Shown: positions 48,005-48,213, counted from the stretch's first letter. The stretch: DNA of 64,000 bases from Patescibacteria group bacterium UBA6532 (GCA_002434805.1 DJKW01000009.1:15483-79482); one strand, 5' to 3'. The notes: generated by a model from the sequence alone, not told the origin. Numbers and translations are program-made.

Positions 48005-48038
48005 ATATTTTTTATCTTCCTTATAACTCTTTCTTTTT

Positions 48039-48173
48039 TTAAAGGTTTTTAATGGAACGTAAAATCTGGGTAAGTTCTCCTTTTTTACCCAGATATTGCT
48101 TAAATAATTCTTTCAAATCTCGAGCTGATTTTAACTCTTTTTCTGCCTTATTTCTAAGGCTTTTTGTATCCAT
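48039..48173 (-). pseudogene. 44-codon relic of the N-terminal coiled-coil domain of canonical PheS
   Basis: [44 protein letters not shown] carries the PheS N-domain signature (compare B. subtilis [23 protein letters not shown]). Stop-riddled KKKEL follows, then gyrB starts. Confidence 0.55.
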
Positions 48174-48184
48174 CTTATACTTCT

Positions 48185-48213
48185 ATTTTACCCTAAAATT
48201 AAGATAAAATCAA
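48185..48213 (-). promoter_or_regulatory. Sigma70-type promoter (TTGATT-17-TAAAAT) upstream of the PheS relic and gyrB
   Basis: Minus-strand TTGATT 48208-48213 and TAAAAT 48185-48190, 11 nt before the relic ATG. Confidence 0.5.

Follow-up and report, generated by a model that had tools for sequence, protein, structure and literature searches.

How does a 44-codon open reading frame (ORF) come to lie between a promoter and gyrB in a member of the Parcubacteria? The question was raised by a DNA stretch of 64,000 nucleotides from Patescibacteria group bacterium UBA6532 (hereafter the window), in which this ORF occupies positions 48039-48173 of the minus strand and ends in TAA. The initial annotation had taken it for the decayed 5' end of a canonical pheS gene, lost after replacement by another phenylalanyl-tRNA synthetase (PheRS) and wedged between its own promoter and gyrB. 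The translation was exactly as claimed there. The ORF had also been considered uncalled, which proved wrong: public gene callers have predicted it, under the name 'hypothetical protein', on no fewer than 21 contigs. The contigs come from marine metagenomes and from three metagenome-assembled genomes labelled Parcubacteria (GCA_002998485.1, GCA_002687125.1 and GCA_036012525.1), they are 99.8-100% identical to the window at the DNA level, and they represent one marine Parcubacteria population. All seven copies compared (window and L001-L006) had the identical ORF. Because all copies of this stub stem from a single population, their identity is uninformative on selection.

The resemblance to PheS was checked with the Pfam profile of its N-terminal domain, PF02912 (Phe_tRNA-synt_N). 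The peptide scored 30.7 bits (E = 3.1e-7), above the gathering threshold of 22.3, and the N-terminal PheS signature noticed initially is therefore a statistically real resemblance. Stub residues 16-44 aligned with profile positions 2-30 of 69. The complete domain is a two-helix hairpin of ~69 profile positions; judged by the alignment, the stub encodes only the first helix of this coiled-coil domain. AlphaFold predicted one continuous helix, spanning residues 3-42 (pLDDT 93.6). With the N-domain of Thermus thermophilus PheRS alpha, the stub shares a 13-residue signature, the predicted helix and a profile score above the cut-off; it differs in covering the first 29 of 69 profile positions, in having no catalytic core and in a three-residue deletion. 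The architecture of a functional pheS (TIGR00468; N-domain and class II core, PF02912 and PF01409, in one frame) is absent, and a search of the NCBIfam profiles with the 44-aa peptide gave no match. A chance ORF was ruled out by the PF02912 score together with the DNA homology to pheS described below. Database entries for this 'hypothetical protein' of 44 aa should be annotated as fragments of pheS.

The genomic position of the stub was compared between relatives, using GyrB as anchor for fetching their upstream regions. In the window, gyrB (46007-48004, minus strand; recognised from the ORF list, from Pfam domains of its identical copy in L001 and from synteny) begins at 48004, as initially annotated, 34 nt past the stop codon of the stub. 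An index of 5.8 billion proteins contained no GyrB of 76-100% identity to that of the window, and a metagenome scan with gyrB as query gave none closer than 66% among the matches listed. Whether related CPR genomes still have a full pheS-pheT upstream of gyrB, a comparison proposed in the initial annotation, could be answered positively. Eight different Parcubacteria loci, all with a GyrB identity of 63% or higher (L133, L134, L007, L031, L009, L011, L010 and L012), showed the order pheS-pheT-gyrB on one strand, with 4 to ~190 nt between pheT and gyrB, and this order was also present in L017 (GyrB 58%). A gyrB-secE-nusG-rplK-...-gatB block was common to the window, L131, L133 and L134. The pheS-pheT (pheST) slot of the window contains the stub only, with gyrB directly downstream. 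The shared order and the common downstream block mark pheS-pheT-gyrB as the ancestral arrangement, with the stub at the position where pheS starts. In two of the relatives gyrB itself is interrupted by an intein (L031 3914-7483, 1,189 aa; L132 10001-13387, 1,128 aa), as indicated by Intein_splicing/HNH domains.

The region ahead of the stub is also of pheS origin, by comparison with relatives. A consensus scan placed a promoter at 48185-48213 on the minus strand, with TTGATT at 48213-48208, a 17-nt spacer and TAAAAT at 48190-48185, 11 nt ahead of the stub ATG, in agreement with the initial annotation. This 29-mer was scanned against 2.3 million positions from the loci fetched to that point. 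The top matches were the pheS promoter of L031 (25/29), L131 position 4372 (25/29) and L132 position 9904 (23/29), the last two lying in slots emptied of pheST. A locus fetched later, L137, has TTGATTTTATCTTAAAATTAGGTTAAAAT before its pheS, which agrees with the window promoter at 26 of 29 positions, counted by eye. The stub can thus be said to have its own promoter, in the sense that the 29-mer is homologous to the pheS promoters of relatives. Based on this homology and on its match to the consensus, it is probably a functional promoter, and the retained element would now drive gyrB.

In the relatives, a TTGnnn-17-TAnnnT element was present ahead of all intact pheS genes, its end lying 8-15 nt from the ATG, which implies leaderless or near-leaderless pheS mRNAs in this clade. 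The -10 hexamer of the window is only 11 nt away from the stub ATG, and so its mRNA would likewise be leaderless or nearly so. No Shine-Dalgarno sequence was visible before pheS in L009, L010, L011, L031, L133, L134, L136 and L137, nor at 48174-48213 in the window. Further upstream, a strong intrinsic terminator (48244-48272, minus strand; 12-bp stem, 5-nt loop, T-run) ends an OMP-decarboxylase-family gene (48275-49015, Pfam OMPdecase match) and separates it from the stub-gyrB transcription unit.

The short ORF at the head of an operon historically led by pheS brings to mind E. coli pheM, the leader upstream of pheST, and the stub could be a regulatory leader peptide or attenuator of this type, now controlling gyrB. 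Its composition and surroundings do not fit this idea. There is one Phe among the 44 residues, no terminator or antiterminator was found on the coding strand from the stub to gyrB, no Rfam family matched around the stub, and the homology of the stub is with pheS coding sequence rather than with a leader. A pheM-type attenuator is effectively refuted by these observations.

The closest pheS was retrieved by an exhaustive HMMER search across 1.84 billion representatives; its product, P0242, shares 77% identity with the stub at the N-terminus. The corresponding DNA, L136, is ~82% identical between its pheS 5' end and the stub. A peptide search of a word-indexed database had returned the peptide itself as its sole match. 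Homology to pheS at the syntenic position is therefore documented by the gene order in eight relatives, by the DNA identity to L136 and by the homologous promoter.

Alignment with L136 also located the lesions of the stub. Between codons 23 and 24 (48104-48105, minus strand), both the DNA and the protein alignment indicated a 9-nt in-frame deletion, by which three residues (D/N-x-I) are missing that are kept in nine of nine compared sequences reaching this position. The terminal TAA (48039-48041) is premature: it aligns with a Ser/Pro codon of intact pheS (TCT, Ser, in L136), at which the relatives read ...LKNL-S/P-..., and in this alignment it is a nonsense change rather than a deletion junction. 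Past the stop, the frame had been reported to continue as KKKEL-stop-GR-stop, reminiscent of the next PheS segment. This frame was confirmed and its first three to four codons do align with L136 pheS (48030-48038, AAA AAG AAA against GAA AAG AAA), a short, low-complexity match that is only suggestive; the remainder is more like the 3' end of pheT. A frame-shifted continuation, in which KKERVIRK would correspond to SKKERIRIGR in the PheS of L133 and L134, was rejected. It had no positional DNA support, and it is also disfavoured by the L136 homology, which goes on in frame 0 for only three to four codons.

Disabling lesions are thus present on two scales, namely the loss of ~3 kb (~300 of the ~348 pheS codons and nearly all of pheT) and, inside the stub, the 9-nt in-frame deletion and the nonsense codon. 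Of the original label 'decayed PheS relic', the second part stands and the first is too strong, as the fragment is truncated more than decayed. Equivalently truncated N-termini of six intact relatives scored 18.8-26.0 bits against PF02912, lower than the 30.7 bits of the stub. Between the stub and L136, dN/dS was 0.31 (44 codons; 8.5 synonymous and 12.5 nonsynonymous differences), compared with ~0.16-0.21 for the same codons in pairs of intact pheS. This value is compatible with a truncation that happened recently compared with the divergence from L136, and equally with a continuing constraint. The L136 pheS is itself frameshifted at the zinc-knuckle region and is followed by a DUF6922/AbiEii module, before pheT.

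At the other end of the slot, a trace of pheT may be preserved. The sequence ATAAGGAAGATAAAAA (48024-48009, 16 nt, minus strand) resembles ATAAG-AAGATAAAAA, found at the stop codon of pheT in both L133 and L134. In a search over both strands of these 15-22 kb loci, the AAGATAAAAA-type site ranked first in L133 and within the top three in L134, corresponding to ~p = 0.005 per locus, the two loci being related. By this reading, the final 16 nt ahead of gyrB probably preserve the 3' end of pheT, including its stop (TAA at 48014-48012), followed by the first bases of the pheT-gyrB spacer, although the match is short, A-rich and only suggestive. The segment includes a Shine-Dalgarno-like AAGGAAG for gyrB (48022-48016). 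The 3' junction may lie near this segment; if this placement is right, the 5' limit of the ~3-kb deletion would be at ~48025-48029.

A second PheRS-related gene lies ~7 kb from the stub, at the far end of the same block (39867-41012, minus strand). The claim that it encodes a monomeric PheRS was borne out: its 381-aa product has tRNA-synt_2d and FDX-ACB domains in a single chain (PF01409, 1.5e-55; PF03147, 1.4e-23). It joins the PheS catalytic core, of class IIc, to a C-terminal FDX-ACB anticodon-binding domain of PheT, which is the layout of the mitochondrial-type, single-chain enzymes. The best solved homologue was human mitochondrial PheRS (195 bits), aligned over residues 57-371; bacterial alpha subunits reached ~126 bits. 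The window enzyme has the same chain of alpha-type core and beta-type FDX-ACB as the human protein (FARS2; PDB 3CMQ and 5MGV), from which it differs in being bacterial (Parcubacteria) and in its score of 240.3 bits against TIGR00469 (pheS_mito), below the equivalog cut-off of 258.35. Its best NCBIfam match was NF051887 (SrmL) with 246.9 bits, also below the cut-off (300). Judging from this homology and from the occupation of the pheST slot by orthologues in L131 and L008, the protein probably charges tRNA-Phe.

The family of this protein is very large (3,858 matches at E <=1e-20), and it is 73-81% identical across named candidate groups of the Parcubacteria. NCBI names for its members are mostly 'hypothetical protein'. 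Family loci were seen in the window, L008, L131, L135 and L087-L091. In two of them, a stand-alone gene for a 133-aa tRNA_bind protein (PF01588) is located 13 nt upstream of the monomeric PheRS (L088 9586-9987; L089 896-1297), an arrangement suggesting that some lineages may have a tRNA-binding partner acting in trans. One Nealsonbacteria contig has a second, more divergent monomeric PheS-like gene (L087 16188-17294, minus strand, 368 aa), adjoining three radical-SAM genes and an epimerase gene. This gene may be of the NCBIfam 'PheS-related mystery ligase SrmL' type.

The distribution of the two enzymes in the syntenic block supports replacement, as initially proposed. Four loci have no pheST in the slot (window, L131, L008 and L132), and all four carry the monomeric PheRS, in two cases in the slot itself. 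In L131 and L008, the orthologous gene lies directly upstream of gyrB, and the L008 enzyme is 73% identical to that of the window. In L132, the slot is empty and the monomeric enzyme is encoded 33 kb away on the same contig. In the fetched flanks, no monomeric gene was found in pheST-bearing loci and no pheST in monomeric-bearing loci. This mutual exclusivity covers the block; pheST is presumed to be lost from the whole genome.

The arrangement in the window is compatible with an insertion, since L131, L133 and L134 have gatB directly next to miaA. Here, the monomeric PheRS gene and ~1 kb of ORF-poor DNA are inserted between gatB and the convergent miaA. The ORF-poor part (38891-39866), between the PheRS gene and miaA, has no long ORFs, the only two being of 78 and 37 aa, and Rfam gave no match in it. 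A search of the 64-kb window by tblastn detected no canonical pheS or pheT elsewhere.

The same observations bear on the idea that the stub is a redundant second copy. An intact pheST would then exist elsewhere in the genome, of which 64 kb are seen, and the monomeric protein would be a paralogue that, like SrmL, has a different role. Such a role is suggested by SrmL being its best NCBIfam match and by the Nealsonbacteria contig, where one of two monomeric-type genes sits beside radical-SAM genes. However, the SrmL score of 246.9 bits is under the cut-off and almost equal to that against pheS_mito, the stub occupies the single conserved pheST slot of the clade, and orthologous monomeric genes are found in exactly that slot in L131 and L008. 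In addition, the 73-81% identity of the family within the Parcubacteria equals or exceeds the conservation of GyrB, as for an essential housekeeping enzyme. We regard this reading as improbable.

We therefore consider, with good confidence, that the 44-codon ORF is a pheS remnant, kept together with its promoter before gyrB after pheST had been deleted and a monomeric PheRS had taken over. Synteny, the homology of both promoter and stub to pheS, and the presence of the monomeric enzyme support the earlier suggestion of a fossil of canonical pheS lost after replacement. The ancestor of this marine Parcubacteria lineage would have had an operon of the form P(pheS)-pheS-pheT-gyrB-secE-nusG-rplK.... 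Acquisition of a mitochondrial-type monomeric PheRS would have made canonical pheST dispensable, and a ~3-kb deletion would then have taken out the DNA between approximately codon 49 of pheS and the final few codons of pheT. The surviving parts would be those needed for expression of gyrB and the downstream genes: the pheS promoter, a very short leader with the start codon, a short translated 5' stretch, and the pheT-proximal ribosome-binding region of gyrB (AAGGAAG). The 9-nt deletion and the nonsense codon would have followed later. Deletions extending into the promoter or the start would cut essential downstream expression, and in this way the 5' end would have survived. The stub may still be translated, as a by-product.

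Further disrupted pheS genes were found in related lineages. In L131, a pheS-type promoter is followed, after 13 nt, by a 16-codon ORF, MSKIGLKSLKIKAETR with a double stop, which aligns with PheS N-termini (KSLKIKAE compared with KSLRNKAE in the window). The ATG of the monomeric PheRS is located 10 nt past this double stop. L138 has an OMP-decarboxylase gene, a promoter, a 53-codon stub, a RelE-like ORF and a gene for a CCA-adding enzyme, in this order; the signature in its stub is decayed (YLGDESELAG) and the GKKG motif is gone. The pheS of L137 is gutted to 90 aa, in which the N-terminal 55 residues are fused to the C-terminal 33. L008 and L132 have kept the promoter and have no stub. Stub length and sequence thus vary, and promoter and start region are kept, a pattern that favours a remnant over a functional small protein. 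From this comparison, the conserved element is the promoter with the start region, not the peptide.

Toxin-antitoxin-like modules (DUF6922 with AbiEii, or a RelE-like ORF) were recurrently seen in or beside pheS and pheT of this clade, at L136 2356-3519, L007 828-1581, L137 1079-1294 and L138 about 615-867. They often accompany a disrupted pheS, which is frameshifted in L136, internally deleted in L137 and a stub in L138.

Alternatively, the stub could encode a stand-alone small protein, with the PheS helix acting in trans, for example by aiding the binding of tRNA-Phe to the monomeric PheRS. This enzyme has no coiled-coil arm, and some relatives have a separate tRNA_bind gene beside it. The ORF itself is intact, its product is confidently predicted to form one helix, and it matches the domain consensus strongly. 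Against this, the peptide covers profile positions 2-30 of 69, or one helix of a two-helix hairpin, and has lost the three residues that every compared sequence extending to this point, nine in all, retains. Where the monomeric enzyme occurs in other organisms, the peptide is either missing (L008 and L132) or only 16 codons long (L131), and the L138 stub is devoid of the GKKG motif. No conserved family of short homologues was found among the 1.84 billion representatives, in which the short matches were fragments or wrecks. Taken together, such a function seems very unlikely.

The recurrence of open 5' ORFs has a different implication if the translation of the mini-ORF, and not its peptide sequence, is under selection, because expression of the downstream gene needs it. 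Possible routes for such an exapted relic are the loading of ribosomes by a leaderless 5' AUG, protection from polarity or decay, and coupling of translation through termination near the next start. An open pheS 5' ORF follows the promoter in three lineages (44 codons in the window, 16 in L131 and 53 in L138), and throughout the clade the -10 element of pheS lies just 8-15 nt from the ATG. The distances to the next gene are short, with 10 nt from the double stop to the PheRS ATG in L131, where no Shine-Dalgarno sequence was seen in between, and 34 nt from the stub stop to gyrB in the window. Moreover, the gyrB AUG is predicted to be base-paired, through an 8-bp stem, with a segment lying 13 nt past the stub stop. 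If the reading is true, the recurrent stubs of the window, L131 and L138 would reflect selection rather than unfinished decay, and translation of the mini-ORF would stabilise the mRNA of gyrB here and of the new PheRS gene in L131.

Leaderless-mRNA coupling mini-ORFs do resemble the stub, whose AUG is ~4-8 nt from the predicted transcript start and whose stop is close to the next gene; in this clade, however, the mini-ORF is absent from two lineages with the same promoter, and coupling by the stub is putative. These two, L008 and L132, presumably still express the downstream gene. Furthermore, gyrB has its own upstream AAGGAAG, the RNA fold is unremarkable against the genome background (see below), and the widely differing stub lengths are as random deletion end points would give. 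We judge this exaptation unlikely, and prefer a pheS remnant that has persisted by its position next to the promoter.

A structured RNA was also tried as an explanation and dropped. The stub-gyrB RNA folded with z = -5.0 relative to shuffles, but it ranked at the 14th percentile of 319 same-strand windows after GC correction. Its most conspicuous element was a perfect 10-bp inverted repeat, ATCTGGGTAA...TTACCCAGAT (48064-48094, minus strand), over the codons of 11 residues, with an 11-nt loop containing AAGGAG. The 10-bp hairpin is identical in L136, which identifies it as inherited pheS coding sequence. L031 has a 9-bp hairpin of different bases (TTGGATAA...TTATCCAA) at the same place, and other relatives have none. 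The pheS 5' hairpin may be due to chance or may be a conserved feature of the 5' end of pheS mRNA.

Gene remnants that retain a promoter are already known as a type of object. As in other remnants of displaced genes, the window has a truncated 5' fragment at the ancestral position, a retained promoter, lesions and a substitute nearby. It differs in that the fragment is unusually well preserved and in that a graded series exists across lineages, from the full operon through a 90-aa gutted gene and stubs of 53, 44 and 16 codons to the promoter only. The value of the stub is that it marks a displacement that has recurred in Parcubacteria, in which a single-chain enzyme of mitochondrial type takes the place of canonical (alpha-beta)2 PheRS; no description of this displacement was found in literature searches. 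Literature searches on monomeric or mitochondrial-type PheRS in CPR, or on 'SrmL', likewise found nothing relevant. The locus provides clear physical evidence for the displacement of an essential aminoacyl-tRNA synthetase in an ultra-small (CPR) bacterium, with ancestral operon, scar and substitute enzyme visible within one syntenic block, and with related lineages at different stages. The monomeric family bears on genome streamlining, as one chain of 381 aa stands for ~1,030 aa of PheS and PheT, and on the origin of the architecture of the mitochondrial enzyme.

Elsewhere in the conserved block of the window, a gene at 43345-44187 (minus strand), between those for dCTP deaminase and thymidylate synthase, encodes a product of 280 aa for which Pfam gave matches to MtrA and DUF4346 (pterin-binding). 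In this region, the relatives have thyX, SHMT and folD genes instead.
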